From an uncultured Actinomycetota bacterium (GTDB taxonomy: Bacteria; Actinomycetota; Actinomycetes; JAHEKZ01): a stretch of 64,000 nt of DNA. The translations under genes and the position numbers were made by a program. The notes under the pieces are model-generated. The model worked only from the letters and a program-made list of their open reading frames with translations, made no database searches and was not told where the DNA came from. This document shows, piece by piece, positions 1 to 53,460 of the stretch. Position 1 is the first letter of the stretch; each line of letters opens with the position of its first letter. The stretch covers positions 8,279 to 72,278 of the forward strand of contig CAVPLY010000005.1 in NCBI GenBank assembly GCA_963706045.1, given 5' to 3'.

Positions 1-1392
1 GGCATCACGTACGCGAAGGGGGCGGCGGTCCTCAAGCAGCTCGTGGCGTGGGTCGGCCGAGACGCCTTCGTCGACGGCGTCCGCTCGTACTTCGACAAGC
101 ACGCGTGGGGAAACACCGAACTCGCCGACCTGCTCGGAGCGCTTGAGCAGACGTCTGGACGCGACCTGTCGAGCTGGGCCAAGGAATGGCTGGAGACTGC
201 AGGGCTCAACACGCTGCGTCCACAGTTCGAGGTCGACGACGACGGACGTTTCACCTCGTTCGACGTTGTTCAAACCGCGCCAGAGAGCCACCCGACCATT
301 CGCTCTCACCGGATCGCAGTCGGACTTTACGAGCATGGGGACGCCGGGTTGGTTCGCACTGGACGCGTCGAGCTCGACGTGGTTGGCGAACGGACCTCGG
401 TCGATGCACTTGTCGGCATGGCACAGCCCGACCTCGTGCTCGTCAATGACGATGACCTCGCCTACACCAAGATCCGCCTCGACGAGCGGTCAGCGACCAC
501 GCTCGTCGACCACATCGGGGAGCTGCCAGACACCCTCGCCCGCGCCCTGTGTTGGACAGCCGCGTGGGACATGACTCGTGACGCCGAGCTCTCGGCACGC
601 GACTGGGTGGCACTCGTCCGGAGCGGACTGCCCCACGAGACCGACATCGGCGTGCTTCAGGTCGTGGTGCGGCAGGCTGTCTCGGCCCTGTACCTGTTCA
701 CACCCGTTGAGCACCGTGAAGACGCGCTGGCCGACTTCGCCGAGTACCTGCAGCATCAAGCCGCTGTCGCCGAGGCGGGCAGCGATCACCAGCTGGCCCT
801 GTACCGAGCATTCGTCAGCATTGCGCGCACCGATGTTCAGCTCGACGCCGTCGCCACGACGCTGGCCGACGGCCCTGACCTCGAGGGCCTCGCGCTCGAT
901 GCCGACCTACGGTGGAGCCTGCTGTATCGGTTGGTGGCAACTGGACGGGTCGATGCCGACGCCATCGACGGTGAGTTCGAGCGCGACCGCACGGCAACAG
1001 GGGAGCGCCAGGCAGCTGCTGCCCGGGCCGCGCTTCCGACGTCCGCCGACAAGGAGCGCGCCTGGCAAGCGGTCGTCGAATCCGACGACCTGCCGAATGC
1101 ATTGCTGAATGCGACCGTGGCGGGTCTCAACACCCCAGACCAGGCCGAGCTCAACCGCGTACTCGTCGAGCGTTACTTCGCAGCGATCGAAAAGGTCTGG
1201 CGCGACCGCACGAACGAGTCGGCGCAGACCATCATCGTGGGGTTGTACCCCTCGTTCTTGATCGAACAGTCCACGATCGATGCGACCGAGGCGCACCTGG
1301 CGTCCAACGACTCACCACCAGCGCTGCGCCGCCTGCTGCTCGAAGCCGCCGACGGGATCCGCCGATCGCTTGCCGCCCAGCGGGCCTACTAG
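1..1392 (+). CDS. pepN: Aminopeptidase N (M1 family), C-terminal part; 5' end lies outside the window
   Basis: Frame 1 is open from base 1 (GITYAKGAAVLKQLVAWVGRDAFVDGVRSYF...). The ERAP1-like C-terminal domain pattern is typical of actinobacterial PepN. Stop at 1390-1392. Confidence 0.85.
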   Translation, partial: GITYAKGAAVLKQLVAWVGRDAFVDGVRSYFDKHAWGNTELADLLGALEQTSGRDLSSWAKEWLETAGLNTLRPQFEVDDDGRFTSFDVVQTAPESHPTIRSHRIAVGLYEHGDAGLVRTGRVELDVVGERTSVDALVGMAQPDLVLVNDDDLAYTKIRLDERSATTLVDHIGELPDTLARALCWTAAWDMTRDAELSARDWVALVRSGLPHETDIGVLQVVVRQAVSALYLFTPVEHREDALADFAEYLQHQAAVAEAGSDHQLALYRAFVSIARTDVQLDAVATTLADGPDLEGLALDADLRWSLLYRLVATGRVDADAIDGEFERDRTATGERQAAAARAALPTSADKERAWQAVVESDDLPNALLNATVAGLNTPDQAELNRVLVERYFAAIEKVWRDRTNESAQTIIVGLYPSFLIEQSTIDATEAHLASNDSPPALRRLLLEAADGIRRSLAAQRAY

Positions 1393-38246: not shown

Positions 38247-38481
38247 GTTCGCCCTCCGAGGGTGTGTGGCCCAGCGAACTTATCAACCCCGCACACCCCA
38301 CCAGTCGTTCTGGACGGGACCAGCGACTCCAGCACTCGCCAACCTTCCGCTCCAACATGTCGGTGATCATGTCAGTTGATTCCCCACAGCCCCGCTTCAT
38401 TGCTAGGTTCACCGAACGCACAGACATCGGCGGCAGCCCAAGAAAGTCCGCAGCGGTCAGCACTCAAGGAGGTGGTGAAAG

Positions 38482-39285
38482 GTGAATGTGGACCCCAGCG
38501 GAGCGTCAGCGCCGACAGTCACGAGGCTGTTCACGACCCCAATCAAGGGGTTCACGCTGGGCCAACCTGCAAGCGTCACCCTGGGGAGAAACGGGGCAGA
38601 GGGCGATCGTGACTTCTTCGTCATTGACAGCAACCAGGAGCTCCTGTCGATTACGAGGACAGGTGCCTTTGGGGGTTGGCAGGCTCAGTTTGATCGAGAC
38701 CAAGGTGTCCTGACCCTCGTGTCCTCCGATGGCCGCGTCCTCGAAGACAAGGTCGTCAGGGGTGCTGATGCAGTGGTCGACTTCTGGGGGTCACATGAAG
38801 TCCCAGGTCACATCGTGGATGGCCCTTGGTCGGTCTGGCTGTCTGAGATCGCGGGCCAATCGGTCGACTTGGTGCGCGCGACAGAGCCGGGTGGAGCCAA
38901 CGATGAGACGGCTGTCACGGTGGTCTCGGAGGAGTCCGTCGCTGAGCTGGGGCGAGTGACCAACACCGGGGCGATCGACATCCGCCGATTCCGGATGCTC
39001 ATCAACATCTCCGGTGTTGATTCCTACGAAGAGGAGACCTGGCGCCCCGCCACCGTGCGTATCGGTTCTGCCTTGCTGAAGATGCGGGGCCCGGTGCCTC
39101 GGTGCAACGCCACGACCCGGAATCCTGACACGGGAGAGAAGGACCTGAAGACGCTGCGACTCATCGCCGAGGGCCGCGGGATGCAGCCGGATGAGTTTGG
39201 CGAAGAAGGACTCAATCTGGGCGCTTACGCCGAGGTCGTTGAGCCTGGCGTCGTAAGCGTGGGTGACCGGGTCGAGTTGGTCTAG
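38482..39285 (+). CDS. MOSC domain protein (MOSC_N beta-barrel plus MOSC)
   Basis: RLFTTPIKGFTLGQ is the MOSC_N start. C-terminal MOSC region with the conserved Cys (RGPVPRCNATTRNPDTGEKD). Confidence 0.8.
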   Translation: MNVDPSGASAPTVTRLFTTPIKGFTLGQPASVTLGRNGAEGDRDFFVIDSNQELLSITRTGAFGGWQAQFDRDQGVLTLVSSDGRVLEDKVVRGADAVVDFWGSHEVPGHIVDGPWSVWLSEIAGQSVDLVRATEPGGANDETAVTVVSEESVAELGRVTNTGAIDIRRFRMLINISGVDSYEEETWRPATVRIGSALLKMRGPVPRCNATTRNPDTGEKDLKTLRLIAEGRGMQPDEFGEEGLNLGAYAEVVEPGVVSVGDRVELV

Positions 39286-39374
39286 TCCTCGACATCAATC
39301 CCGGATCAGTACACATTGCGGTGCCCTGGGAATGAGTCGGTGGGGGCGCCTGTTCCCCCACGAGACGACCAAGG

Positions 39375-40124
39375 TTGACCGTGATGGTGAGAAGGGAACT
39401 TGCGGTGCGCGTCTCCGGATTGTGGCGCTACCCGGTCAAGTCACTGGGGGGTGAGACCCTCCAGTCCGCCGAGCTGACTCTCGATGGAGTTGCGGGGGAC
39501 CGGGTGGTACACGTAAGCGGTCCCCGAGGACCACTGACCGGACGGACGCGGTACGGCCTTCTCACGGTCCCGGCGAGCACCGGATCAGATGGTGTTCCGT
39601 ATGTCGCTGGTCATCGCTGGGACTCTGATGAGGCGGCCGAAATCATCAGCCAGAACGGCGGACTGGGCGCGCGGCTCGTCGCAGACGAAGGGCCAGACCG
39701 CTTCGATGTACTCAACCTCCTCGTCGCCACCGACGGAGCGGTTGAACGATTTGGCCATGACGTCCGCAGACTGCGACCGAACCTGCTGCTCGCTGGTGTA
39801 CCAGCCGACATTGAGCCCACGATGCCTGGTCAGGCCATCGCCATTGGGGACGCACTGATCGGCGTCCACTCGGTCCGTGGCCGATGCGTTGTCACGTCGA
39901 TCGACCCAGACTCCGGCGAGCAGGACATGGATGTCTTCCGCCGGATTCACACCGTGTTCGGGGGAGAGTTGGCACTCAACTCTTGGGTCATCCGACCAGG
40001 CACGGTTCGCGTAGGTGATGAGGCAAGCCTGGTGGCCCTCGAGGCCGAGCCAGTTCACCTCGGCGGTTGGGTTGTCGGTGCTCCCTACCCGCACGCGACC
40101 GAGAGCCCGCGCCGGCGGTCGTAG
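39375..40124 (+). CDS. MOSC domain protein (second tandem paralogue)
   Basis: LWRYPVKSLGGE is the MOSC_N start. VRGRCVVTSIDPDSGEQD contains the conserved MOSC cysteine. Confidence 0.75.
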   Translation: MTVMVRRELAVRVSGLWRYPVKSLGGETLQSAELTLDGVAGDRVVHVSGPRGPLTGRTRYGLLTVPASTGSDGVPYVAGHRWDSDEAAEIISQNGGLGARLVADEGPDRFDVLNLLVATDGAVERFGHDVRRLRPNLLLAGVPADIEPTMPGQAIAIGDALIGVHSVRGRCVVTSIDPDSGEQDMDVFRRIHTVFGGELALNSWVIRPGTVRVGDEASLVALEAEPVHLGGWVVGAPYPHATESPRRRS

Positions 40125-40189
40125 GCAGCTGTTACGACTGAACACCACCTCGTGCCGCCCTCGCCCAAAACGCCTAGGCACGCCACACG

Positions 40190-40300
40190 TGGCGGCGGCC
40201 ATCGACGGACAACAGCCACCGCCCCAAGTGGCTGCTTGATTCCCCCGCTTCCACCAAGTCGCGACATCTCGCTCAACCGCGCCCGCTCGCACGACGGATC
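40190..40300. mobile_element. Scar: about 110-bp remnant homologous to the 3' flank of the IS transposase fragments at 49430-49560 and 50960-51090
   Basis: catcgacGgacaacagCcaccGccccaagtGgctgc... aligns with catcgacCgacaacagTcgccAccccaagtAgctgc... at 49430 and with the end of ORF 50447..51007. Confidence 0.5.
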
Positions 40301-40310
40301 AGCCGGCCGG

Positions 40311-40348
40311 GGGCCTGCCTGATCCGCGCGATCAGTTCTTCGTGGAGC
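40311..40348. repeat. 37-bp diverged duplicate of the LuxR gene's 5' coding region (second copy at 46054-46090 inside the LuxR CDS)
   Basis: ggccTgcctgatccgcgcgatcagttcttcgtggagc versus ggccCgcctgatccgcgcgatcagttcttcgtggagc. On the minus strand it encodes LHEELIARIR. Contains the 17-bp near-palindrome ctgatccgcgcgatcag. Confidence 0.6.
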
Positions 40349-40371
40349 AGACGGTCGATCTGCCAGATACC

Positions 40372-41775
40372 TCAGGCAGTAGCCGCGAGACGACCGGCCT
40401 CGGCTCGGTCCGCGGCGGCTTGCGCGCGGTCGCCCAGCTGTTCAGCGAGCGTCGCCTGCTTGAGCCAGTTGTAGGGACTGCACGGCTTGAGGTTGATGCG
40501 TTCACTGAGGAGCTGTCGTGACTGGGCAGATCGGCCGCTGCGCAGGGCGGCCTCGAGCAGGGTGCGCTGGATCGCGTCCCGTTGCGCGTGGCTACCTCCG
40601 AACTCATTGAACCTGTAGCGCAGGGGCATCAGCGCGTCGACGACGGCGTCGTAGTGTCCCGCCCCGAAGTCGAGCATCGCCTTGCACACAGGCAGCCCGA
40701 TTTCGCGAGTCATGGTTGCGTTAGTCACTGCGTCCGGAGCAGTAGCCAGCCAGCTCTCGCGGTCCTGGATCAAGCGTTCTGCGCGGTCGAAACTACCTGC
40801 GCCGACGTAGGACATGACGGCGTGCATGTCGTTGAACGCGTAGCAGGGAGTTTGCATGGCGGGCACCCAAGCATCTGCGAGAGTGCGCCACCGCTCAGTC
40901 TGGTCATCACCCTCTAGATAGAGCCGCCACAGCAGGGCGGCGGCATCGAGCATCTCCATCGCCAGGCCAGCCGACTCGTCGTTGTTGATGACGGAATCGA
41001 AGATTCTGAGTACCCGCTCACGGTCTCCGACCTCGAGCCCAAATAGGCAGCGGTGCCACCAGTTGTGCACGTTGAGGAAGTTCCCGGTGCCCCAGTCGTC
41101 AGTACGGTCATCGAGGTACGAGATCCCCAGGTCGAAGCGTCCCTGCATCTCATAGGTATGCACCACCGCGTGGATACCCCAGACATCGGTCGGGTCCGCT
41201 GCCACGGCGGCAAGGCCGACGTCCTCGGATCGGTCGTAATGACCGGCTTCCTCCAATCCAAAGGAGTACATGCCCAGCAGCTGTGCTCGGTGGGGTTCGT
41301 CGTCGCCCCACGCCGTGAGCGCGCCTCCGACCCGGTCCCGCAGCGAGGTCGCGTCACCGGAGAAGAAGTCAGCTTGGTGACCAACGGCGAGGGCCAGCAC
41401 GTCGCGTGGGTAGGCGACGGTGAGATCGCGAAGGAGTGCCCCGGCTCCTTTCAAGTTTCCGTCCAACCACGCCTGCGCAGCCTCGACGTGCCTGTGCTCT
41501 CGATCGCCCAAGACTGTCTCGTCGGCGCCGGCCCGCCAGCTCACAAAGGCCGTTCGAGCTGCTTGGGTGTCGGCGGCCTCAGTGCCCAGAACGCCGAGGT
41601 AGGCACTGAACACCTGGGCCATCGCCATGTTCGGGTCGACCTCTAGGGCTGCCGCCAATTCGTCGCCCACGGCTGGCCGGAAATGTAGAAGGTGGTCTAT
41701 CGCCGTGTCGTAGTGAGCGACCGCCGCGACATCGGTGGGACCTAAGCCATTGCCGTGTTGATCCGTGTTCGCCAT
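40372..41775 (-). CDS. Tetratricopeptide-repeat (TPR) protein
   Basis: 467 aa of helical repeats from the ATG at 41775 (MANTDQHG...), with an AGGAGC Shine-Dalgarno upstream. The upstream 63 codons of ORF 40372..41964 are discarded. Confidence 0.7.
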
Positions 41776-41910
41776 GGCCGGGATTCTGCTCCTGATGCGG
41801 CAAGATAGCGAGGCTCCCGGGGTCCGCCCTTCCGGTCCCGCGTCAAACGGCCACCACCCAGGGAGATTTCGACGCTGGTAGGACGTGCGGAGGGCCACTA
41901 CAGTGCTGCG

Positions 41911-43340: not shown

Positions 43341-43382
43341 GACTGGACTGAATCGTCGATCTCGAGCGAAAGACGTCAATCC

Positions 43383-44978
43383 ATGACCGACGCCCACCGG
43401 TATGACGCAATCGTTGTCGGAGGCGGCCACAACGGCCTTGTCAACGGCGCCTACCTCGCCAAAGCGGAGATGAACACGCTCATCCTCGAGCAACGTCACC
43501 TCGTGGGGGGCGCCGCTATCACCGAGGAGCTCTACCCCGGCTTCAGCTTCACGACGTTCTCCTACGGGCTGAGTCTGGTCCGACCCGAGGTGATTCGTGA
43601 GCTCGAACTGGTCAAGCACGGATTCAACCCCATCTACATGCCGACGGTATTCGCCCCGATGGAGAACGGCGACTATCTGCTGCTCGGCCCCGACCGGGAC
43701 GAGAACATCCACGAGATCGGGCGGCACTCTCGGCGCGATGCCGACGCCTTCGACCGTTACGAGCACGACCTAGCACGCGTCCTTCAGATGTTGTACCCGC
43801 TGTCCGACCGAGTGCCACCCGACATCTTCGGCAGCACCCCCGAGGACGCCGAGGACGTCGCCTGGCTGCTCGGGCACCTCGGGTCGGCAGACAAGAAGGT
43901 CATCCACGATGCCGTCCGGATCATCACGGGCAGCGTCTCGGACTTCCTGGACGACTACTTCGAGAGCGAGATCGTCAAGGGTTACCTTGCTGCATCCTCC
44001 ACGACGGGCACCAAGGTCGGACCGATGTCAGCGGGCTCGGGTCTGGTCTGGTTGATGCAGATGCTGGGCGAGCACGACGGTCACCTCGGCTCGTGGTCGT
44101 TCCACAAGGGAGGCAACGGCGGGTTCACTCAAGTGCTGGGGCGCGCGGCGCAGTCGTTTGGTGCCGAGATCCTCCTTGACTCGCGCGTTGACCACGTACT
44201 GACCAAGGATGGCAAGGCGGTCGGCGTCGTCCTCACCGACGGAACCGAGTTCCACGCCGACACCGTCGTCAGCGCCCTCGACCCGCGCCAGACGTTCACC
44301 AAGCTTGTCGACCCCCGCGAACTGCCGTCGGACCTGGTCGAGAGCATCGACCGCTACCAGTTCAACGGCACCAGCGCCAAGGTCAACTTCGCGCTCGACG
44401 ATGTACCTCGGTACCCAGCGCTCGGAGACCGCACCGACCAGTACCGCGGCTTCGTCAGCATTGCCCCGTCGATCGAGTACCTCGAGCGCGCCTATGACAC
44501 CTCAAAGTACGGCTGGTACAGCGAGCGTCCGTACCTCGACACCTGCTTTCAGACTTTCCTCGATCCCGATATGGCGCCTCCCGGCAAGCACGTCATGTCG
44601 TGCTTCGTCTCCTACGCGCCGTACCACCTCAAGGGCAGCGACTGGGACACCGAGCGCAACAACCTTGGCGACACGGTGCAAAGCACCATCGAGTCGTTCT
44701 TCCCCGGCTTCGGTGACCTGGTGCTGCACCGAGAGGTCGTCACGCCGCTCGACATCGAGCGGGTCGTCGGGCTCTCCGAAGGCAACATCTACGCCGGCGA
44801 CTACCTACTCCCGCAGCTGTACTTCTTCCGCCCGGCGCCCGGGTGGAGTCAGTACCGCACGCCGATCGAGGGCTACTACCAGTGCGGCTCAGGCACTCAC
44901 CCGGGTGGCTGCGTCACGGGGGCGCCCGGACGCCTGGCAAGCCAGCAGATCCTCAAAGACCGCTCCCTAACGATCTGA
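43383..44978 (+). CDS. FAD/NAD(P)-dependent oxidoreductase, phytoene-desaturase/amine-oxidase superfamily
   Basis: YDAIVVGGGHNGLVNGAYLAKAE is the dinucleotide-binding motif. 531 aa. Start 40 nt after the aminotransferase stop, so a likely operon. Confidence 0.85.
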   Translation: MTDAHRYDAIVVGGGHNGLVNGAYLAKAEMNTLILEQRHLVGGAAITEELYPGFSFTTFSYGLSLVRPEVIRELELVKHGFNPIYMPTVFAPMENGDYLLLGPDRDENIHEIGRHSRRDADAFDRYEHDLARVLQMLYPLSDRVPPDIFGSTPEDAEDVAWLLGHLGSADKKVIHDAVRIITGSVSDFLDDYFESEIVKGYLAASSTTGTKVGPMSAGSGLVWLMQMLGEHDGHLGSWSFHKGGNGGFTQVLGRAAQSFGAEILLDSRVDHVLTKDGKAVGVVLTDGTEFHADTVVSALDPRQTFTKLVDPRELPSDLVESIDRYQFNGTSAKVNFALDDVPRYPALGDRTDQYRGFVSIAPSIEYLERAYDTSKYGWYSERPYLDTCFQTFLDPDMAPPGKHVMSCFVSYAPYHLKGSDWDTERNNLGDTVQSTIESFFPGFGDLVLHREVVTPLDIERVVGLSEGNIYAGDYLLPQLYFFRPAPGWSQYRTPIEGYYQCGSGTHPGGCVTGAPGRLASQQILKDRSLTI

Positions 44979-45003: not shown

Positions 45004-46164
45004 TCAGGATTCGGCGCTATGGGTCGTCGGCGCCTGCAGGTGGCCGCCAGCGTTGAGCGGGTCATGCGCCACGATGCCCGGCAGCTGGTCGTGGAAGAAC
45101 ACCTGCGCCAACAGCTCCTTGCGGGAGCGCGTGTCGGTCTTGGCGAAGATCGCCTTGAGATGGTCCTGCACCGTCCACGGGGAAATGACGAGCCTGTCCG
45201 CGATGGCCGCGGTGTCCAGCCCGCGGGCAACCAGGCTGGCCACCTCCTGCTCCCGCGCGGTGAGACCGAAAGCCTCCAGCCGCAGCGGCACCGCGTACTC
45301 CTCGCCCGCTCGCTGCACGACGATCGCGACCCGTCCGGTCGACGCCTCGTCGGGCAGCGAGCCGTGCAGCGTCAACCACCCATCAGACGTCGGGATGTGC
45401 AACGGCTGGGCGAACCGACCCTCGCGTCCCTGTCGACGTACCTCGGCGGCCAAGGCCAGCGCCGGAACTGGGACGTTTCGTTCGATCGGGTCGTCGCGCA
45501 ACACCGGGGCGAGCAGCGCGGTGGTGGTTGGCGTGGACAGCTCGACGTCGTCGTTGGCGTCAAGGATCAGCAGGCCGGGGGCGCGGTGCTCGTCGTGTCG
45601 TAGGGCGGCGTCGAACCGGTAGGAGTTGCGCAAAGCCTCGGCGATCGGCCGCGACATTCGAGCCATCAGGCGGGCGTCTTGCGCGGTGAAGTCGCCTGTG
45701 TCCTTGGTCCGGTGCATGACGACGCAGCCCCAGGCTCGTCCGCGTGTGACCATCGCCACCCGCATTTCGTATGGAGTCCCGATCGGTTCCAGAAACTCGC
45801 GGTAGCGGGCGCTTCGCTCCGGGCGGCCCCGCGTGGTCTCGCTGAGGATCCCGACGGGGATGCGCCGCGCTGCAAGCACGGCAAACTGGTTAATGTCGTC
45901 GCGCAGGTATTCGCTGGTGACGACGGCCTGGGCTGCCGCCTGTTCGGTCGCCGGCGTGAGGAACCCACCGGTCATCAGCTCCATCGGGTTCGCCGTGGTG
46001 AGCAGCTTGGTCTCGGGGTCGAGGCCGTGCCAGCAGGCGGCGTCGACCGGGAAGGCCCGCCTGATCCGCGCGATCAGTTCTTCGTGGAGCCGTGCGTAAG
46101 GCAGGCCGCGGGTGCCGAGGCGTTCCACGTCGGCTACGAGCCTGTCGCCATCCGAGGGGGACAT
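45004..46164 (-). CDS. LuxR-family transcriptional regulator (N-terminal sensor-like domain plus C-terminal LuxR helix-turn-helix)
   Basis: C-terminal FGLTAREQEVASLVARGLDTAAIADRLVISPWTVQDHLKAIFAKT is a LuxR helix-turn-helix. The first ~173 codons of ORF 45004..46683 look like non-coding sequence, so start is taken at MSPSDGDRLV. Confidence 0.7.
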   Translation of the reverse strand: MSPSDGDRLVADVERLGTRGLPYARLHEELIARIRRAFPVDAACWHGLDPETKLLTTANPMELMTGGFLTPATEQAAAQAVVTSEYLRDDINQFAVLAARRIPVGILSETTRGRPERSARYREFLEPIGTPYEMRVAMVTRGRAWGCVVMHRTKDTGDFTAQDARLMARMSRPIAEALRNSYRFDAALRHDEHRAPGLLILDANDDVELSTPTTTALLAPVLRDDPIERNVPVPALALAAEVRRQGREGRFAQPLHIPTSDGWLTLHGSLPDEASTGRVAIVVQRAGEEYAVPLRLEAFGLTAREQEVASLVARGLDTAAIADRLVISPWTVQDHLKAIFAKTDTRSRKELLAQVFFHDQLPGIVAHDPLNAGGHLQAPTTHSAES

Positions 46165-46680: not shown

Positions 46681-46832
46681 CACTGCATCTGCCTGCCGGC
46701 GTCAGTCGGTCGAAATTCATCGGGCTCCTTGGGGACGAGAGCGGCACAGCGCCCTCAACTACTCAAGGAGCCCGGCGCGAAAGACCTGCTGGGACCTAGG
46801 GCAGCTGAATCCTCACGCAGACACTCGTTCTG

Positions 46833-47031
46833 GGGCGGATGCGAGCAAGAATCCGCCCGTTGGACTTGATCCGCCCCGATCGCGGCCGGGCCCAGCCGGT
46901 TTCCCACAGGAATTCCGAATGTCCCGCCCCGTAGGGCGTGCGTGAAACTCCTGACACCCCCGCTGACCTGAGTGTTCACCGGTACGCGAATGCACCGCGC
47001 AAGCGAACCTGCGCAGATCCGGAAGTGGCGG
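46833..47031 (+). repeat. Copy 1 of a ~190-bp structured intergenic repeat with hairpin core CGCAcGTCC-N10-GGgCGTGCG
   Basis: Modules cttgatccgccccgatc / ggtttcccacaggaattccgaatgtcccgccccgtagggcgtgcgtgaaactcc / ctgacctgagtgttcacc / atccggaagtggcgg. Preceded by an 8-bp-stem hairpin gggcggat-N10-atccgccc. Confidence 0.75.
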
Positions 47032-47271
47032 CTCTCCTACGTGCTGGGTCTGCGACCGCCCTCCATCGACGGCGAGGGCTCTCCTCCCCCGCTCACCTCT
47101 TCAGAGGTCTCATCATCGCGGGCACAGGGACTCTTCCGAGTCCCTGTCGGCGGCCTTTACGACTACTCCTCGAAACCCAGACACCGAACCCAAAGGCACC
47201 CTTCGTGGCGCCGCTTCATCAGGCAGCTGCAAGCGCCGGGCCAACGGGACCGGTTGCGCCGATCGGTGATG

Positions 47272-49263
47272 TCAGGGCAAGGGGCCGACGGGCACCGAAA
47301 CGGCTGCCGCATCCGCTGCGGTGGGTCCGTCGAGACCTGGCACTTGCGGTTCGGGGGGTCGGTGCCAGTTCAAGTACGTCAGGATTACGCCGGTTATGAC
47401 GGTGTATGCCAGCAAGACACCCAGCGATTGCCCTATGCCGTTGCCATTGAAATAGACCGTGTTGCGCAACAGCTCATAGGCGTTGCGGGGAGGTAGAAAC
47501 GGCCCAAGATCTCGCCAGAAATTGGTCAGATACACCGCACCGTTCGACCCACCAGACGACGGATTGCCGAACTGCAGAAAGATGATCACCGTCAGCAGAA
47601 TTCCGGCTGGTCCCAAGAGTCGCCGTAGAACAGCGGCAAACAAGGACACCGTGAGGATGATCAGCGACATGATCGGCCACACGACCCAGAAGGAATCGCT
47701 TGGTATTCCCTGAAGCCAGAAAGTGGCGATGAGGTCAACCACGAGACCGGCAACGACTGCGAACCCGAGGAGCCATTCCCCTCTCCAATGGCCGGAGGCG
47801 GATTTGAATGCATTCGTCAACAACGCCGTGGCCATGTAGCCACCCACGAGCAGGGGAACCAGCAGCGTGGCTAGTACCAACGCAAACGGATCCTTAGGTG
47901 CGAGCGGCGTCGGCACGTAGGACTTGACGGTGATCTGCTCCGACGAAGCCTGGGCTGCCTTCTCGAAGTTCCCGGCAATATCTAGCGGCGCGATGTCGCT
48001 GATCGACGGGACCACGATGAGTTCTCCCGGGGACTCGGTGGCGATGAGAGCTCCATAGATTTCCCCACGATCGATGGCCCCCATCGCGGCCTGCCGGTCC
48101 GGGTACTCCGTAACGTCCAGGGAGAACAGATCGTTCTGCGCCGCATCGACCAGCGGGGAAGACCCAACGCTGCCGAAGGGCATGTCGTCCGCGATTGGTT
48201 CGTGGCCCGAACTCATGTAGTTGAACGCAAAGAGCGCGCTCAGGATCAGCGCCAGGGTCACCGGCGCTACGAGATTCCTCGGAACAAAGCGGCGCCGTCC
48301 CGATCCCGAGCTGGACTCGTCGTCAGCTGGTGCGCCAACGGCGGGTTCGATGGTGACGCGCCTACCCATGAGGACGACAAGCACCACGCCGACAACGGCG
48401 TAGAGGCTCAGCACGAGGATTGGAACAGCGATGCCGTTGCCATCGAAGTAACGGACATTGCGGTAGAGCTCGACGGCGTGCCGTGGCGGGAAGAGGGCGC
48501 CGATGTACTGCCAATACGTGGGGAGCAGTGACACCCCACCGCCGCCGGCGCCCGCACCACCGACCACAACGAAGGCCAACGCCACCACGAGCGTGCCCGC
48601 TTTGCCGAGAACCGCCTGGAGGCCAATCGCCGCGAGGGCAACCGCCGCAGTAACGAGCGCAAAGCAGGGTAGTAGGCCCCACACTGCGCTCGATGGAACC
48701 CCACCTACCGCTCGCGCAGCCACGGCGGTGATCACCGCGACGGCGACCGCAAAGCCAAGAACCACCGAGATGCGACGCCACGCTGACGCAGTCCGGGCGT
48801 AGGGGAAGATCATGGAAGCGATCAGGTATCCGCCAATGAGGGTGGGGAGCAGGAGAAGTCCCACCAGCCCACCCGTTCGGTCCGACGTGGGAAGCGGGGC
48901 TACGACTGTTGTATCGAAGGTTCGGCCCGACTTCTTCGCCGCGTCGGCGAAACCACCGCGCACGAACACTTCGCCGAAGAAGCTTTTGGCTGGGACGGTG
49001 ATGAGGGTGTCGTTGGGTGTTCCCGGGATGTAGCCGCCGTAGATTTCGCCGTCCTCAGCGGCCTGCTTCAGGTCTTCCTCTGATTCGTAAGTGATGAGGT
49101 CCAGGGAGTACTCGGTCTGAACGGCGGTGACGACTGGCGAAGGCCCCGTGACCCCGAATGGCATGTTTCGTGGCGTGAGAAGTTGCAGGGCGCTCACCAG
49201 GCAGATCGCGAAGACGGCGACCAACACCACGACGGTCACTAGCGCCACGATTGGCTTTCTCAC
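47272..49263 (-). CDS. YhgE/Pip-like (ABC-2/DUF3533-type) membrane protein with internal tandem duplication
   Basis: 663 aa. Two about 320-aa halves each with an N-terminal transmembrane helix, a large extracytoplasmic domain and a C-terminal five-helix bundle ending LLPTYWQYIGALFPPRHAVELYRNVRYFDGNGI / AVYLTNFWRDLGPFLPPRNAYELLRNTVYFNGNGI. GTG start with a GGAGGAAG Shine-Dalgarno. Confidence 0.75.
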   Translation of the reverse strand: MRKPIVALVTVVVLVAVFAICLVSALQLLTPRNMPFGVTGPSPVVTAVQTEYSLDLITYESEEDLKQAAEDGEIYGGYIPGTPNDTLITVPAKSFFGEVFVRGGFADAAKKSGRTFDTTVVAPLPTSDRTGGLVGLLLLPTLIGGYLIASMIFPYARTASAWRRISVVLGFAVAVAVITAVAARAVGGVPSSAVWGLLPCFALVTAAVALAAIGLQAVLGKAGTLVVALAFVVVGGAGAGGGGVSLLPTYWQYIGALFPPRHAVELYRNVRYFDGNGIAVPILVLSLYAVVGVVLVVLMGRRVTIEPAVGAPADDESSSGSGRRRFVPRNLVAPVTLALILSALFAFNYMSSGHEPIADDMPFGSVGSSPLVDAAQNDLFSLDVTEYPDRQAAMGAIDRGEIYGALIATESPGELIVVPSISDIAPLDIAGNFEKAAQASSEQITVKSYVPTPLAPKDPFALVLATLLVPLLVGGYMATALLTNAFKSASGHWRGEWLLGFAVVAGLVVDLIATFWLQGIPSDSFWVVWPIMSLIILTVSLFAAVLRRLLGPAGILLTVIIFLQFGNPSSGGSNGAVYLTNFWRDLGPFLPPRNAYELLRNTVYFNGNGIGQSLGVLLAYTVITGVILTYLNWHRPPEPQVPGLDGPTAADAAAVSVPVGPLP

Positions 49264-49369
49264 CGGCTACTTCCTCCACGATCGTTGGCGCTCGGAGTGC
49301 GTCAGACTAGCGTCTTGGACGGCCCTCCGACTGGTGCCTGCTGCTGTTCGGCGTCTGGGTCGGAGTCAT

Positions 49370-49560
49370 TGCCAGCACAACCAGACCGTCATCGTGCTGA
49401 TGGCAGCACTCGCCCAGAACGCTTGGGCACGCCATACCTGGCAGCGGGCCATCGACCGACAACAGTCGCCACCCCAAGTAGCTGCCTAACTCCCCGCCTC
49501 ACAACCTCACTCCACCTGGTTCAGCCGCGCCCACGACCGGGCTCGAGCGCCCGAAATCGC
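49370..49560 (+). mobile_element. Remnant of the 3' end of a DDE-transposase gene plus its downstream flank (IS scar)
   Basis: Encodes ...HNQTVIVLMAALAQNAWARHTWQRAIDRQQSPPQ, about 90% identical at the nucleotide level to 50895-51005. Immediately followed by repeat copy 2. Confidence 0.6.
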
Positions 49561-49574
49561 TCACTGACACTCCA

Positions 49575-49715
49575 CTGAGGGCCAAACCCACAAGGAATGC
49601 CGCACGTCCCGCCCCCGTAGGACATGCGTGAAACTCCGTCAGCCTCACCTGACCTGTGTGTTCATTGGAGCCCGAGGGTGTGGCGGAAGTGGATCGGGTC
49701 AGTTCCGGAAGTGAC
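49575..49715 (+). repeat. Copy 2 of the ~190-bp hairpin repeat; lacks the left about 70 bp
   Basis: ggggccaaacccacaaggaatgccgcacgtcccgcccccgtaggacatgcgtgaaactcc...cacctgacctgtgtgttcattg...ttccggaagtgac. Confidence 0.75.
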
Positions 49716-49973
49716 TCAATCGAAAGAGCCCACGCTGAAGTTTTCTAGGCCCGGCATCTGGCGGCCGATGACATCGTCGCCGCGGCTAAGTTCGAAGACG
49801 CCTGTCCTGAGGTCGAGTGTGAGCTCGTCGTAGAGACCGTATCCTCTAGACAGCTCTGCTGAATCTCTCCGACCTGGCCCACCGGATATCACCAGACCCG
49901 AGGTAGGCACGATGTTGTGGTAGATGGCGTCCCAGTCACCCGCGCTCCTCCCCCGTGAGGAACCAGTCGTCAA
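49716..49973 (-). CDS. Hypothetical small protein (85 aa); could be a gene fragment
   Basis: ORF only. Located between repeat copy 2 and the transposase remnant. No motif recognised. Confidence 0.25.
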   Translation of the reverse strand: MTTGSSRGRSAGDWDAIYHNIVPTSGLVISGGPGRRDSAELSRGYGLYDELTLDLRTGVFELSRGDDVIGRQMPGLENFSVGSFD

Positions 49974-50076
49974 AGCGCACGCTCTGTAAGGTGCGCAGAG
50001 ATCGTTGGCACCAAACTTAAGCCTGACGCGGCCAGATGCTTCGCTGCGCCCGAGCTCAGTGGCCTAGGTTGGGCTC

Positions 50077-50343
50077 GTGAGCAAGAGCGACGCCCAGCGG
50101 GCATTGAGAGAAGCCAACTTCGCCCGTCGTAAGGCGGCCCAGACAGAGCGGGTTCCCAAGCGAACGGCAGAGGCGAAACATTCCCCCGCCGGCGAACCTG
50201 AAAGAGCACAGGCCACTAGGCCCTCAGCGGTCAAGACGCCATCGACAAGCGCGACCGAACCCCTTTGCGGTCACCGCAACATGGGGGGCAAGAAATGTAG
50301 TCGCCCCGCTGGCCACGCGGAGAAGAACCATCGCTACAAATAG
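50077..50343 (+). CDS. Hypothetical small basic protein with a C-terminal Cys/His cluster (CGHRNMGGKKCSRPAGHAEKNH)
   Basis: 88-aa ORF upstream of the transposase fragment. Possibly a zinc-ribbon remnant of the same disrupted IS. Confidence 0.3.
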   Translation: MSKSDAQRALREANFARRKAAQTERVPKRTAEAKHSPAGEPERAQATRPSAVKTPSTSATEPLCGHRNMGGKKCSRPAGHAEKNHRYK

Positions 50344-50446
50344 CGACGTCCCAACAACATCCCGAGCCGACAGTCGGGGGTCGGGGCGGGAAACCGTTTG
50401 GCACATCTTCCCCGCTCGCCGCAAGAGCAAAGAACGAGGCGGCATC

Positions 50447-51007
50447 GTGATCAGCAAGTACGGCCACGCCGCCACCCAGCTCCCGCCAAGCCGAACACGC
50501 GCAGCGTGGATAGAAGAATGCGGAGGGCACGTCCTCTACGCGGCCGGCGGGACGATCTACGAGCGCGTCGTGACCGCCGACGGAAGCCTCGACTTCGTCG
50601 AAGTCACCCGCCACCAGACCAAACGAGACCGCAAGGCTGATGGGAACTGGGCGTTCTACGCCCGGCACACCCTGACCTGCCGATCTACCGGCGACCTGCA
50701 CGACTGGTGGGAGCCGCTCACCCCGACCCAGACGGACGAGGCACACAAGTTCAATCGCAGCGACTACCTGCGCGTCCTGCCCCCGACCGACCCCGACTAC
50801 AGCCGCGTCTACGGCATGCGGGCTGACACCGAGTCGCTGAACGCGCAGTTTGAGCGCGCCTTCTACAACCGAAGGCTCCCGGCCTGGGGCCTCCACAACC
50901 AGACGGTCATCGTGCTCATGGCAGCACTCGCCCAGAACGCCTGGGCCCGTCACACCTGGCAACGGGCGATCGACCGACAACAGTCACCGCCACAAGCAGC
51001 TGCCTGA
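50447..51007 (+). mobile_element. DDE transposase C-terminal fragment (IS pseudogene; IS4/ISAs1- or IS256-like C-terminal motif, family uncertain)
   Basis: YSRVYGMRADTESLNAQFERAFYNRRLPAWGLHNQTVIVLMAALAQNAW resembles transposase C-terminal Y-R-E / ESLN...LxxL signatures. There is no N-terminal HTH or DDE domain, so it is truncated. Confidence 0.55.
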
Positions 51008-51093
51008 CCCCCCCACTTCACACCGAAGCCAAACCGGGCTCAACCACGTCCCCACACCGATCCACAGTCACAAAATCGTTCCCTGACAGCCCC

Positions 51094-51310
51094 ATCGGGG
51101 CCAAACCAGCGCCAAAGCCCGCCCCCTAGACTTAATCCGCCCCGATCCCAACCGATCGCGGCAGGGTCCAGCAGGTTTCCCACAAGGAATCCCGCACGTC
51201 CCGCCCGCGTAGGACGTGCGGAAAACTCCCCGCGCCGCACCTGACCTGCGAGTTCACCATGGCGCGAGCGCCTACTGGAAGCGAATATGGCCAGATCCGG
51301 AAGTGGCCGC
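51094..51310 (+). repeat. Copy 3 of the ~190-bp hairpin repeat (full length)
   Basis: ctagacttaatccgccccgatc...cgcggcagggtccagcaggtttcccacaaggaatcccgcacgtcccgcccgcgtaggacgtgcggaaaactcc...cacctgacctgcgagttcacc...atccggaagtggccg. Confidence 0.8.
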
Positions 51311-51608
51311 GGCCTACGGGATCGGGTTCGTTGTCCAATCTCTGCCACTTGTCGGCGTCCTCCGCGATCGGTCTCAGGTCGACGACGGCGAAGTACAGGC
51401 CGTACGCCTTGGCTAGCTCCTCGCCGCGCCGCCGCCGGCGTCTGCGGCACCGTAGCTCGCCATTGCGGTCGGCAGCGATGAACGTTCTGAACGGAGACCG
51501 GACCAAAGGCTCTAGCCCCCCGACGGTCATGCGCGATACCGCTTGGGCGGAGTGACGTCATGGTGCGACAGGCACGTGGTTCGAGGGTCGACCGTTGGGA
51601 GGTGCGGG

Positions 51609-52082
51609 ATGCAGGACGAGACGCTCATCGATCTCGTCGAGCGCTATCACGAGTACTACACGGCGCGTGACATCGACGCGATCATGGCGCTGTTCACCGA
51701 CGACGCCGTGGTGAACTGGGCTGGGGGCACTTTCCGGGGTAAGGCAAAGATCCGCAAGGTTGTGGAGTGGGACTTCGACCAGTCCCCCTCGGCCAGAGTG
51801 GACATCACCGGCATCGGCATCGTCACCGGGGATCGTCTGGCCATCGCCGAACGGGTTGTCCACCTCACCGCCGACGAGATCCCGTATGAGGAACCGGCCC
51901 TCACCGTGTTCGAGGTCGACGATCAAGGAGCGATCGTCGAGATGCGCTCGTACTACGACAAGCTGGGGTTGATGCACCAGATCGCTTCGAAGTACCCGGG
52001 CATCAAGGGGCGGCTGTTCCGCGCAATGACCGGCTTCCTCGTGAAGATGGGACGTCAGGGATTGGACGCCTCGCCCGACTGA
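51609..52082 (+). CDS. SnoaL-like / NTF2-like (ketosteroid-isomerase fold) protein
   Basis: LIDLVERYHEYYTARDIDAIMALFTDDAVVNWAGG is an NTF2-like pattern. ATG with a GGGAGG Shine-Dalgarno. Flanked by repeat copies 3 and 4. Confidence 0.7.
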   Translation: MQDETLIDLVERYHEYYTARDIDAIMALFTDDAVVNWAGGTFRGKAKIRKVVEWDFDQSPSARVDITGIGIVTGDRLAIAERVVHLTADEIPYEEPALTVFEVDDQGAIVEMRSYYDKLGLMHQIASKYPGIKGRLFRAMTGFLVKMGRQGLDASPD

Positions 52083-52250
52083 CGGGCGCACACTCACGCA
52101 CAGTGGCCAAGGGAAGTGTCCGGTCGAACTGACCGAGAGGGTGTCCTCGGCTCGCCCGCCACCTTGCCTTCAGCAGATGGGAATCCAGGCCTGACCTGGT
52201 CGCTGCGCGTGTCCCCCTCGACACCGCAGCAACGACCGAACAGCCACTGA

Positions 52251-52445
52251 GTCCCGCCCTCTAGACTTGATCCGCCCCGATCCGAACGGTTCGCGGCAGG
52301 GTCCAGCAGGTTTCCCACAAGGAATTCCGCACGTCCCGCCCCCGTAGGACGTGCGTAAAACGCCCGGCACTGCACCTGACCTGCGTGTTCATCAGAGTGT
52401 GAGTGCACGGTGGAAGTAGAAATGGTCGAATCTGGAAGTAGCGTC
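52251..52445 (+). repeat. Copy 4 of the ~190-bp hairpin repeat (full length)
   Basis: ctagacttgatccgccccgatc...cgcggcagggtccagcaggtttcccacaaggaattccgcacgtcccgcccccgtaggacgtgcgtaaaacgcc...cacctgacctgcgtgttcatc...atctggaagtagcg. Confidence 0.8.
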
Positions 52446-52479
52446 ACCTGGCGCAAGATTGGGTTCGTTTCGACAAAAG

Positions 52480-53460
52480 TCACTCGTCAGCTACCGGCCT
52501 CCTCGCCTGGAGACTGCTGAGCCTTTCCTCGGCCTTCTCCAGTTGCTTGGCGATCCGGCCCCGGAGCTGGGTGGTGCGGTCGAGTTCGGTCAGTGCGCTC
52601 GTGGCTGTCACTGAGCCTTCGAGGACCTGACGGTTGTCCAGCTGCTCGATGAGCTTTGCTCGACGCTCGTGGATCCAGACCCTGACCTCGCGCGGCTCCT
52701 TGAACAGGTGCTTGTAGTACGCGCGGAAGACGCGGTACCACTCTTCCTCGGTGACCGGGGTGATCTCATCGGTCCACTGATCCTCGACGTCCTTGTTACC
52801 CGACTTCATCCGCATGAGCGGGGCCAGCACGTCGTAGCGGAAGTCATGCGGGTCATCTGAGGCTCCAAGCTCTTCGGAGGGCTCCACACCTTCGAGCCGC
52901 GCATCTTCGGCGAAGGTCCACTCCCACAGTCGGTCCAGCCACTCCAGGTTCAGGGTCAGACCTTCCTCTCGGCCGTAGGAGTTGGTGGCTCTCTTGGCCC
53001 CCGTGTGGGCAGAGGCCTCGAGCAGGGCCTCTTCGTAGCAGTCGAGACGGCGGAGCTGCAGCAGGAGCATCAGGATCTGGTCGACTGCTCGCTGCTCGAC
53101 GGCACCTTGCGGGGCGTAGGCCTCAAGCAGTGAGACTAGGAACCCATCAACCTCGGTTGGGTCCTCGGCCATCGACCCCCGGGTGATAACTCGACGCTTG
53201 GCCGCGAAGACGCCATGCGTGGTGGCCTTCTGCGAGGAGCGCTGCTTGCCTTCCTCGGTCCGCGGCCCGGTGCTCTTCTGGGCGTTGGCGGCGTTGGCGC
53301 GCTTCTGCGCCTCGGTGGGCTTGGTCGACCTGGCTTGACTCTTCGCCCTGGTGGGCTTCTGCTTGGTAGGTGGCGCTGAAGTGGTCTTCCGCGGCATCGC
53401 CTTGCGGGCGGCCGCCTTCGGTGCCTTGCCTGCGCCGGCTGGGGTGCTGTCCTCTGCCAT
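52480..53460 (-). CDS. Hypothetical protein with a Lys/Ala/Pro-rich histone-H1-like N-terminal tail and a conserved acidic C-terminal domain
   Basis: ATG with a GAAGGAG Shine-Dalgarno. The N-terminal 95 aa are about 25% K/R and A/P-rich (AGKAPKAAARKAMPRKTTSAPPTKQKPTRAKSQ...). The MAEDPTEV motif is repeated. Confidence 0.6.
   Translation of the reverse strand: MAEDSTPAGAGKAPKAAARKAMPRKTTSAPPTKQKPTRAKSQARSTKPTEAQKRANAANAQKSTGPRTEEGKQRSSQKATTHGVFAAKRRVITRGSMAEDPTEVDGFLVSLLEAYAPQGAVEQRAVDQILMLLLQLRRLDCYEEALLEASAHTGAKRATNSYGREEGLTLNLEWLDRLWEWTFAEDARLEGVEPSEELGASDDPHDFRYDVLAPLMRMKSGNKDVEDQWTDEITPVTEEEWYRVFRAYYKHLFKEPREVRVWIHERRAKLIEQLDNRQVLEGSVTATSALTELDRTTQLRGRIAKQLEKAEERLSSLQARRPVADE

Follow-up and report, generated by a model that had tools for sequence, protein, structure and literature searches.

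A probable tandem array of defective units with cargo genes, derived from an unannotated actinobacterial DDE-type transposon family with apparent specificity for the start of tRNA-Arg and tRNA-Lys genes

The window analysed here is a stretch of 64,000 nucleotides from an uncultured Actinomycetota bacterium (GenBank assembly GCA_963706045.1, contig CAVPLY010000005.1, positions 8,279 to 72,278), which contains several copies of the 3′ end of a transposase-like gene and a series of hairpin-containing direct repeats. It is probable that the region consists of defective, tandemly arrayed copies, with cargo genes, of an unannotated actinobacterial family of DDE-type transposons or insertion sequences (IS) that is site-specific for the start of tRNA-Arg(CCT/TCT) and tRNA-Lys(TTT) genes. 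The initial annotation, made from the letters of the window, had recognized IS remnants at this location, which is partly right, but the target specificity, the array structure and the constraint on the coding sequence were missed. Rather than scattered insertions that decayed in place, as had been supposed, the copies appear to be units of a tandem array at one target, nucleotides 1-9 of a tRNA-Arg gene. Four junctions are found in the window, and they mark off units with an ABC-2 membrane protein gene, an 88-aa open reading frame (ORF) plus a truncated transposase gene, and a SnoaL-like gene as cargo (Table 1).

Element ends, junctions and the tRNA target

Three copies of the transposase gene 3′ end exist in the window, as had been annotated. 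The last ∼35 codons of a 186-aa ORF recur with their downstream flank at 49371-49495 with 87% identity in an ungapped alignment, and a gapped alignment matches 50894-51107 to 49376-49588 (77% over 216 nt, E 2e-40), so that the ∼90% originally given for this second copy is somewhat high, and ∼120 nt underestimates its length, which is closer to 125-215 nt. The third copy also exists and lies to the left of its former position (40190-40300), at 40154-40255/40290 (80% over 104 nt to 50921-51024, E 3e-19). Copies 1 and 2 each precede a hairpin and the 40154 copy does not. The hairpin motif GCACGTCCCGCCCNCGTAGGACGTGC is present at 49602, 51194 and 52329 (0 expected from 100 shuffles) with a degenerate fourth copy at 46915-46948, and all four are included in direct repeats of ∼190 nt (46853-47032, 49526-49715, 51118-51307, and 52253-52442).

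Although the hairpin does follow two of the gene copies, it is not the separate element that it had been taken for. In it, a right inverted repeat (..TTCCGCACGTCC) is followed by a spacer of 10 nt (CGCCCCCGTA) and then by a left inverted repeat (GGACGTGCGGAA..), the two pairing partners being contributed by two abutting elements and the spacer corresponding to C plus nucleotides 1-9 of tRNA-Arg; this composition is recognized because the 5′ half of the hairpin matches the sequence that precedes tRNA genes, and the 3′ half is its inverted complement. At 26 of 39 related loci (designated by L numbers), a tRNA-Arg(CCT), tRNA-Arg(TCT) or tRNA-Lys(TTT) gene is located ∼200 nt downstream of the transposase-like gene on the same strand, and in each of the 26 the right end adjoins an intact tRNA one base before its first nucleotide (..GGTTTCCCACAAGGAATTCCGCACGTCC, C, tRNA nucleotide 1). 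In the window, the tRNA sequence breaks off after nine bases (GCCCCCGTA) and is followed by GGACGTGCGGAAAAC.., the inverted complement of the preceding 12 bases. The terminal inverted repeats are 12 bp long, and the left repeat GGACGTGCGGAAAAC and the reverse complement of the right repeat, GGACGTGCGGAATTC, match at 12/12 positions in the window and at dozens of other loci.

True left ends, in which unrelated DNA is followed by tRNA nucleotides 1-9 (GCCC[C/T]CGTA) and then by the left repeat, can be detected at L012 and L010 and in at least five metagenome contigs (L051, L060, L065, L068, and L089). Element 1 of L010 has identical GCCCTCGTA on both flanks, and L018 and L020 have CGCCCCCGTA on both flanks. 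At L024, L025, L033, L054, and L057 the 8-9 nt spacer GCCCCCGT is present in two to four tandem copies, which look like transposon footprints and would be unexpected under conservative recombination.

Several further sequences at or near element ends were observed. L030 contains a partial duplication of a tRNA-Lys 5′ end directly before the intact tRNA (1404-1440; GGGCCCC GGGCCCCTAGCTC) and L054 four tandem spacer copies at ∼1495-1540, which together suggest repeated cycles of insertion and excision at one site. A solo copy of the 12-nt terminal inverted repeat (GGACGTGCGGAG), preceded by GGTA and in the "wrong" orientation for an element end, is found at 41881-41892 of the window, where it adds 12-13 nt in comparison with L042, which otherwise aligns; it may be a footprint. 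On the left side of a full-length element in L001 (∼1040-1110, minus strand), a fragment resembling a tRNA 3′ half (..GTGGGTTCGAGTCCCACAGGCGG..) adjoins a helix-turn-helix (HTH) gene; it may be the left boundary of a distant subfamily or part of another integrated element.

Variation of units among close relatives

At precisely this point, whole units are present in some close relatives and missing from others. The exact SnoaL-like protein of the window is also encoded on 21 other contigs, and window positions 51087-52347 are 97.9% identical to L040, L043, and L044, where the SnoaL unit borders, with its right repeat, on an intact tRNA-Arg(TCT) gene followed by Usp, nitroreductase, RNase T, and tRNA-His genes. 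Homology to these three stops exactly at 52347; beyond this point the window has a further element, beginning with its left repeat and left end, which is absent from all three, and a different element of >9.7 kb is present at the same nucleotide in L041, which comes from the same sample as L042. One and the same nucleotide is filled in the window, empty in L040, L043, and L044, and filled otherwise in L041. The upstream flank is shared, and the distance from its amine oxidase gene (43359-44962 in the window) to the SnoaL unit is 0.86 kb in L040 and 6.1 kb in the window, the latter interval containing a LuxR gene, the ABC-2 unit and the 88-aa ORF unit. Yet other last units occupy the orthologous tRNA-Arg(TCT)...tRNA-His locus in L018 and L025, and units elsewhere encode cysteine synthase/GNAT, ArsR/permease/OsmC, ABC ATPase/MarR, an FAD oxidase with an extracytoplasmic function (ECF) sigma factor, or a 1137-aa repeat protein.

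This variation also bears on the proposal that the ∼190-nt repeats are host intergenic repeats unrelated to mobility, such as repetitive extragenic palindrome-like sequences, a terminator or a duplicated tRNA promoter. The hairpin does score as a terminator-like stem on the minus strand, and no Rfam match at the gathering score was found for it across the whole window, but the repeats are physically continuous with the transposase gene 3′ end across dozens of genomes, and bounded units are present or absent between 98%-identical genomes, which already contradicts such an origin and leaves it scarcely credible.

The DDE-type protein family

The 186-aa ORF is present with its annotated start and sequence and represents the C-terminal 40% of a DDE-type protein of ∼490-530 aa. 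In agreement with the initial annotation, it is a C-terminal fragment of a transposase-like protein, aligning to residues ∼293-490 of full-length homologues, and it contains the Y-x2-R-x3-E motif (YGMRADTESLN) and lacks the N-terminal catalytic part with the first two catalytic Asp residues. It is taken to be catalytically dead, because it begins after both of these residues. A search of 5.8 billion proteins yielded 51 homologues of the fragment, none with a name or Pfam domain, and a search with the full-length copy of the isolate Nocardioides agariphilus KCTC 19276 (L006 4482-5954) yielded 103 homologues of 490-530 aa; an exhaustive profile search extended the family to 1706 representatives of 50%-identity clusters. 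Intact homologues were thus found, their absence from every genome, together with the lack of a significant ISfinder hit, having been named at the outset as the mark of a degenerate host gene.

Longer relatives share the motifs VGLDGKVF, ADGAWRGTH, and YGMRxDTESLN, and in an alignment of 28 full-length members D196, D298, and E464 are at least 90% conserved. The AlphaFold model (predicted local distance difference test score 87.7) has an RNase-H-like core in the order β1-3/α/β4/α/β5, a β-rich insertion domain at residues ∼331-425 and a C-terminal helix that bears E464, and its sole significant fold match in the PDB is the piggyBat transposase (Foldseek, E 4e-4, probability 0.94). The general features of DDE (RNase-H-like) transposases, namely the triad, the order of the fold and the match to piggyBat, are therefore found in the family, and the window ORF retains only the Glu.

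No Pfam or NCBIfam model exists for these proteins, which are "hypothetical" in every record examined; homologues on Mycobacterium and Streptomyces plasmids carry the label "hypothetical protein," and ten distant members are equally unannotated. Searches of Pfam, NCBIfam, and PDB sequences gave no usable family for the fragment, the full-length protein or the ten distant members. Below threshold, residues 115-165 of the ORF resemble the C-terminal ends of the transposases of the NCBIfam families IS1182 (E 0.018) and IS1380 (E 0.036), and the Y-x2-R-x3-E segment is the only part of the ORF that touches known transposase models. Against the IS1182 model (NF033551, cut-off 270 bits) the window ORF scores 13.9 bits and the full-length and partial homologues 11-22 bits, over the C-terminal ∼50 residues only, and scores against the IS1380 model (NF033539, cut-off 180 bits) are 12.3-12.7 bits. 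Pfam DDE domains (DDE_Tnp_1 and relatives) were detected neither in the window ORF nor in four partial homologues (278-324 aa) or the full-length L006 protein; one distant member reaches 13.9 bits against a cut-off of 23. The family fails every curated family threshold, which precludes assigning it to an ISfinder-type family, and its nearest neighbours are IS1182/IS5/IS4-type by sequence and piggyBac-type by fold. Literature searches returned no description of such an element.

Partner genes and the question of the recombinase

Most full-length elements contain an ORF of ∼320 aa 5′ of the DDE gene and, further 5′, a divergent HTH gene accompanied by the palindromic, operator-like sequence TGTCTATAATTATAGACA. 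In L001, L003, L006, and L007, perfect or near-perfect palindromes (TGTCTATAATTATAGACA and variants) occupy the divergent promoter region between the HTH and Xer-like genes and are likely to function as the operator to which the HTH protein binds. The 320-aa family has a profile match to XerD (E 2e-7), but the tyrosine recombinase residues (R..H-x-x-R..Y) are not conserved: the position of XerD Arg-I is occupied by Ser, Thr or Ala, and there is no conserved C-terminal Tyr. No Xer-like partner gene is present in the window. The HTH, Xer-like, and DDE trio is also found around distant homologues on plasmids with no tRNA nearby, and in a distant subfamily (L001, L003, L005-L008, L011, and L015) no left inverted repeat was detected 5′ of the Xer-like genes. 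A 2.24-kb element in L012 has both ends and the DDE gene only. Catalysis is assigned to the DDE protein, with an accessory role for the Xer-like protein, because the latter lacks the catalytic residues and the L012 element contains a DDE gene only; both assignments are predictions.

The alternative is conservative site-specific recombination, in which the hairpin would be an attP-like core with 9-bp inverted arms and an 8-10 bp overlap, attB would lie at the tRNA 5′ end, and the DDE-like protein would not be the recombinase. It is compatible with the palindromic junction (CGCACGTCC-N10-GGACGTGCG), with the Xer-like gene and divergent excisionase-like HTH gene with its palindromic operator in full-length elements, with the name "site-specific integrase" given to the Mycobacterium kansasii partner by the Prokaryotic Genome Annotation Pipeline, and with tandem accretion at tRNA genes, which is typical of integrase-driven islands. 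The lost Arg-I and nucleophilic Tyr of the Xer-like family, the L012 element with its two ends and single DDE gene, the spacers with two to four tandem target copies and the conserved DDE triad all argue the other way, and this alternative is considered improbable. A related candidate, the hairpin as an attP/attC-like site within an integron-like array, was dropped as the main explanation once it was seen that the elements end in inverted repeats, that some spacers are multi-copy and that the Xer-like protein lacks catalytic residues. Of the hallmarks of integrons (intI, an adjacent attI and attC-ended cassettes) none was found, as no integrase is encoded in the window and the repeats are transposon ends plus the tRNA nonamer.

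A putative promoter in the right end

The right end of the elements is predicted to carry a promoter for the adjoining tRNA. In almost all of ∼50 right ends, a TANNNT hexamer, mostly within cccTAGACT, is located 71-85 nt 5′ of tRNA nucleotide 1; the TAGACT form is a −10-like box ∼76 nt before the tRNA start. The hexamer is compatible with the actinobacterial −10 consensus and is kept even in subfamilies in which the surrounding sequence is unrelated. It has been lost, through a deletion of ∼70 nt, from the right end that precedes the junction at 49610, a copy that presumably no longer needs it.

The mini-element and its truncated transposase gene

The unit 49620-51201 is a representative of a 1.4-1.6 kb mini-element, consisting of a TAGGCT box, the 88-aa ORF and a transposase gene truncated at ∼residue 293, which recurs in L018, L019, and L023. 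The part 5′ of the truncated gene is 88-93% identical at the nucleotide level between the window and these three loci, where the 88-aa ORF is intact and 89-93% identical. The C-terminus of the 88-aa protein is invariant and Cys/His-rich (EPLCGHRNMGGKKCSRPAGHAEKNHRYK; C-x9-C-x5-H-x4-H), and no match to the protein was found in Pfam, NCBIfam, or the PDB. The GTG start of this ORF, whose mRNA looks leaderless, lies 6 nt after the end of the TAGGCT −10-like box. It was also observed that ∼100 nt within 50077-50343 are almost identical in four genomes, in which the neighbouring sequence differs by ∼10%.

The 186-aa ORF does not behave as a simply decaying gene, which is how it had first been described. 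The same truncated architecture is present in other genomes; among copies with the 88-aa ORF and the truncated gene, dN/dS is 0.09-0.18 and indels are almost absent. Among truncated copies dN/dS is 0.08-0.21 (at dS 0.4-0.9), and for every 100 mismatches the coding part has 0.7 gap openings and the adjacent non-coding right end 10.3. Against a function stand a stop codon in the L019 copy, a 24-aa deletion in the L023 copy and truncation points elsewhere that form a continuum from residue 283 to 460; furthermore, gene conversion by intact copies could give a similar appearance of constraint. That the truncated protein has a function is accordingly regarded as possible rather than probable.

The same observations are relevant to the original proposal in its literal form, i.e., that three independent insertions of ordinary IS decayed in place and that the hairpin is a separate repeat found beside them by chance. 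Three unequally truncated 3′ ends, the continuum of truncation points and the lesions in L019 and L023 are what such decay might produce. On the other hand, the hairpin consists of the two ends of the elements themselves and the tRNA 5′ nonamer, the units are contiguous, co-oriented and matched by the array at the tRNA-Arg(TCT) locus of relatives, and the truncated gene retains a dN/dS of ∼0.1 and its low rate of gap openings, so that decay of independent insertions is very unlikely to account for the region.

Proposed mechanism and significance

Under the favoured explanation, a tandem array of defective copies of a tRNA-start-specific DDE element, the DDE protein would make staggered cuts that duplicate tRNA nucleotides 1-9 and would thereby leave the tRNA intact on the right, where the conserved TAGACT-type promoter of the right end would drive its transcription. 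Each new insertion would enter the same target and push older copies upstream, and these would lose the 5′ half of the transposase gene and carry or acquire cargo. The Xer-like protein, devoid of the catalytic Arg and Tyr, may act as a DNA-binding accessory factor and perhaps as a target selector.

Several points weigh against this explanation. A 9-bp target duplication and an identical site-specific recombination core would look the same in sequence, inverted arms with an 8-10 bp spacer also resemble the core site of a tyrosine recombinase, and full-length elements carry Xer-like and excisionase-like HTH genes. The flanks of the L012 element differ at one base (GCCCTCGTA vs GCCCCCGTA). The tRNA promoter activity of the right end is a prediction from conservation, and a scan for sigma-70 promoters of the Escherichia coli type, whose consensus is ill-suited to actinomycetes, detected nothing. 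No sequence model places the DDE-type family above threshold, and the match to piggyBat is weak by geometry (TM-score 0.24, root-mean-square deviation 18.9 Å, 9% sequence identity). Finally, the only two full-length copies seen in the window's own subfamily (L012 and L019) are frameshifted, although both come from metagenome-assembled genomes, and the window by itself provides remnants only, with no intact element and no tRNA detected by ARAGORN.

A broader proposal, which joins all of these parts and is, taken as a whole, rather unlikely, is that at tRNA-Arg/Lys genes the elements constitute a platform for gene capture in the phylum Actinomycetota, which has been reported to lack integrons. 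Cassettes encoding SnoaL, the ABC-2 transporter, ArsR/permease, ECF sigma factors and others would be mobilized in trans by the DDE transposase, each inserting at the first nine bases of the tRNA and supplying a promoter that keeps it expressed, with the inactivated tyrosine-recombinase homologue as target selector. By analogy with the Tn5 inhibitor protein, the truncated transposase and the 88-aa Cys/His protein might together regulate or inhibit in trans.

The window itself is a more modest object, a set of defective copies, and its interest lies in the family that it reveals. If the interpretation holds, these elements would be bacterial DDE transposons whose specificity for the tRNA 5′ start is exact to the nucleotide, and for which the "do no harm" problem is solved because the first nine bases are duplicated and the promoter is replaced. 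The interpretation would also give a name to a large protein family (the 1706 cluster representatives) now called "hypothetical" by pipelines, explain strain-variable gene islands beside tRNA-Arg in uncultured freshwater and soil actinomycetes, and make available, for high-GC Gram-positive bacteria, a safe-site integration system that is compact and looks programmable.

Organization of the window and neighbouring sequences

The coordinates of the array are collected in Table 1.

Table 1. Array units, junctions and transposase gene copies in the window.
Feature	Position	Strand	Remarks
Diverged third transposase 3′-end remnant and start of right end	40154..40290	+	
Oldest junction: right-end remnant and degenerate right repeat CCGAATGTCC (46915-46924)	46780..47032	+	Spacer CGCCCCGTA (46925-46933), then left repeat GGGCGTGCGTGAAAC and left end (46934-47032)
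ABC-2 unit	46934-49609		Minus-strand ABC-2/YhgE-like gene, 31-codon transposase remnant, deleted right end
ABC-2 / YhgE-Pip-like membrane protein gene	47272..49263	-	Cargo of unit 46934-49609
Transposase remnant (last ∼31 codons) and right end	49376..49609	+	∼70-nt internal deletion; right inverted repeat 49600-49609
Spacer CGCCCCCGTA (49610-49619), then left inverted repeat GGACATGCGTGAAAC and mini-element left end	49610..49715	+	
Mini-element	49620-51201		88-aa ORF and truncated transposase
88-aa ORF	50077..50343	+	5′ of truncated transposase gene, within mini-element
5′-truncated DDE transposase-like gene	50405..51007	+	β-rich insertion domain and C-terminal helices with catalytic Glu kept
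Truncated DDE transposase-like ORF, GTG start, 186 aa	50447..51007	+	Homology to full-length proteins from 50405 (∼residue 293 of 490)
Mini-element right end	51008..51201	+	TAGACT −10-like box 51127-51132; right inverted repeat ..GGTTTCCCACAAGGAATCCCGCACGTCC ending 51201
Junction spacer CGCCCGCGTA	51202..51211	+	C + tRNA-Arg nucleotides 1-9; read as duplicated target
SnoaL unit	51212-52336		
SnoaL unit left inverted repeat GGACGTGCGGAAAAC and conserved left end	51212..51310	+	
SnoaL-like cargo gene	51609..52082	+	In unit 51212-52336
SnoaL unit right end	52212..52336	+	TAGACT 52262-52267; right inverted repeat 52327-52336
Spacer CGCCCCCGTA (52337-52346), then left inverted repeat and left end of further element	52337..52442	+	
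Further element	52347 onward		Right end beyond window; tRNA presumably beyond window too

No inverted repeat was found 3′ of the third remnant, which sits within a 3.6-kb segment (38292-41866) missing from the relative L042. This segment also contains two MOSC genes and a tetratricopeptide repeat (TPR)-type ORF. L042 further has, between the aminotransferase and amine oxidase genes (around 43341-43361 of the window), a 2.5-kb FAO/GCV_T gene that is missing from the window, and the neighbourhood has therefore been rearranged well beyond the array. A 37-nt direct repeat (GGCC[T/C]GCCTGATCCGCGCGATCAGTTCTTCGTGGAGC), 97% identical between its copies at 40312-40348 and 46054-46090, is located just 3′ of the TPR-type ORF and inside the LuxR/GAF regulator gene, respectively, and may mark a paralogous regulator fragment.

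Long minus-strand ORFs at 51132-51530, 52094-52483, and 51040-51561 cross the junction repeats (translations such as ..HVLRGRDVR.SLWETCWTLP..); they are read-through of the repeat itself and probably spurious gene calls. The same read-through is seen in some database "proteins," e.g., the C-terminal tails of P0002 and P0050. Exact-sequence look-ups returned no record for the 186-aa ORF, the 88-aa ORF, a 326-aa ORF or a DUF2252 protein; the ABC-2 protein was traced to a contig, one with no DNA attached.

Comparison with known systems

With IS1182/IS5/IS4-type elements the family shares a DDE triad whose second Asp and Glu are separated by a long insertion domain, the Y-x2-R-x3-E signature around the Glu, and short terminal inverted repeats with a flanking direct repeat; an N-terminal "GGRPxxYPDW..FGSAS" segment resembles the DUF772-type N-terminus of IS5/IS1182 transposases. 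It differs in its scores (12-22 bits vs the IS1182 cut-off of 270, and no Pfam DDE_Tnp match), in its strict target, nucleotides 1-9 of particular tRNA genes, in the predicted conserved outward promoter of the right end, and in its Xer-like partner gene and cargo of up to >10 kb. The piggyBac superfamily (piggyBat, PDB 9c0f) has a comparable RNase-H-like core broken by a β-rich insertion domain. piggyBac elements use a TTAA target and excise precisely, whereas here a putative 9-bp duplication and a footprint-like multiplication of the spacer are found at the junctions.

Like Tn7 and Tn7-like elements, which use attTn7 downstream of glmS or, in the type V-K CRISPR-associated members, sites near tRNA genes, the family would occupy a single "safe" site beside an essential conserved gene that stays functional, carries cargo, and may employ a dedicated non-catalytic DNA-binding selector. 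Tn7, however, inserts downstream of its target gene with no promoter replacement and depends on the unrelated TnsABC and TnsD/TniQ machinery, genes for which were not seen here, whereas the putative selector of the present family would be an inactivated tyrosine-recombinase homologue.

Integration in tRNA genes with restoration of the tRNA, tandem accretion, and integrase-like and excisionase-like genes are also features of the tRNA-targeted tyrosine-integrase elements, i.e., prophages, ICEs (integrative and conjugative elements) together with the actinomycete ICEs (AICEs). Classical elements of this kind reportedly recombine in the 3′ part of the tRNA gene, at the anticodon loop, the T loop or the 3′ end, and bring along a replacement for the 3′ portion; in the present family the 5′ nonamer is involved, a promoter is predicted to be supplied instead, and the integrase-like protein lacks the catalytic residues. 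To our knowledge, bacterial elements at tRNA genes use either the 3′ part with tyrosine integrases or a site downstream of the gene, as in Tn7-like elements.

Finally, the SnoaL and ABC-2 units are reminiscent of mobile insertion cassettes (MICs) and integron arrays in being short, end-bounded units that carry a single gene or a few unrelated ones and lack a working transposase, in being stacked in one orientation at one site, and in varying in composition between close strains. Movement of the present cassettes in trans is putative. In contrast to integron arrays, which are organized around IntI, attI, and attC, the boundaries of these units are formed by transposon inverted repeats and a tRNA-derived spacer.

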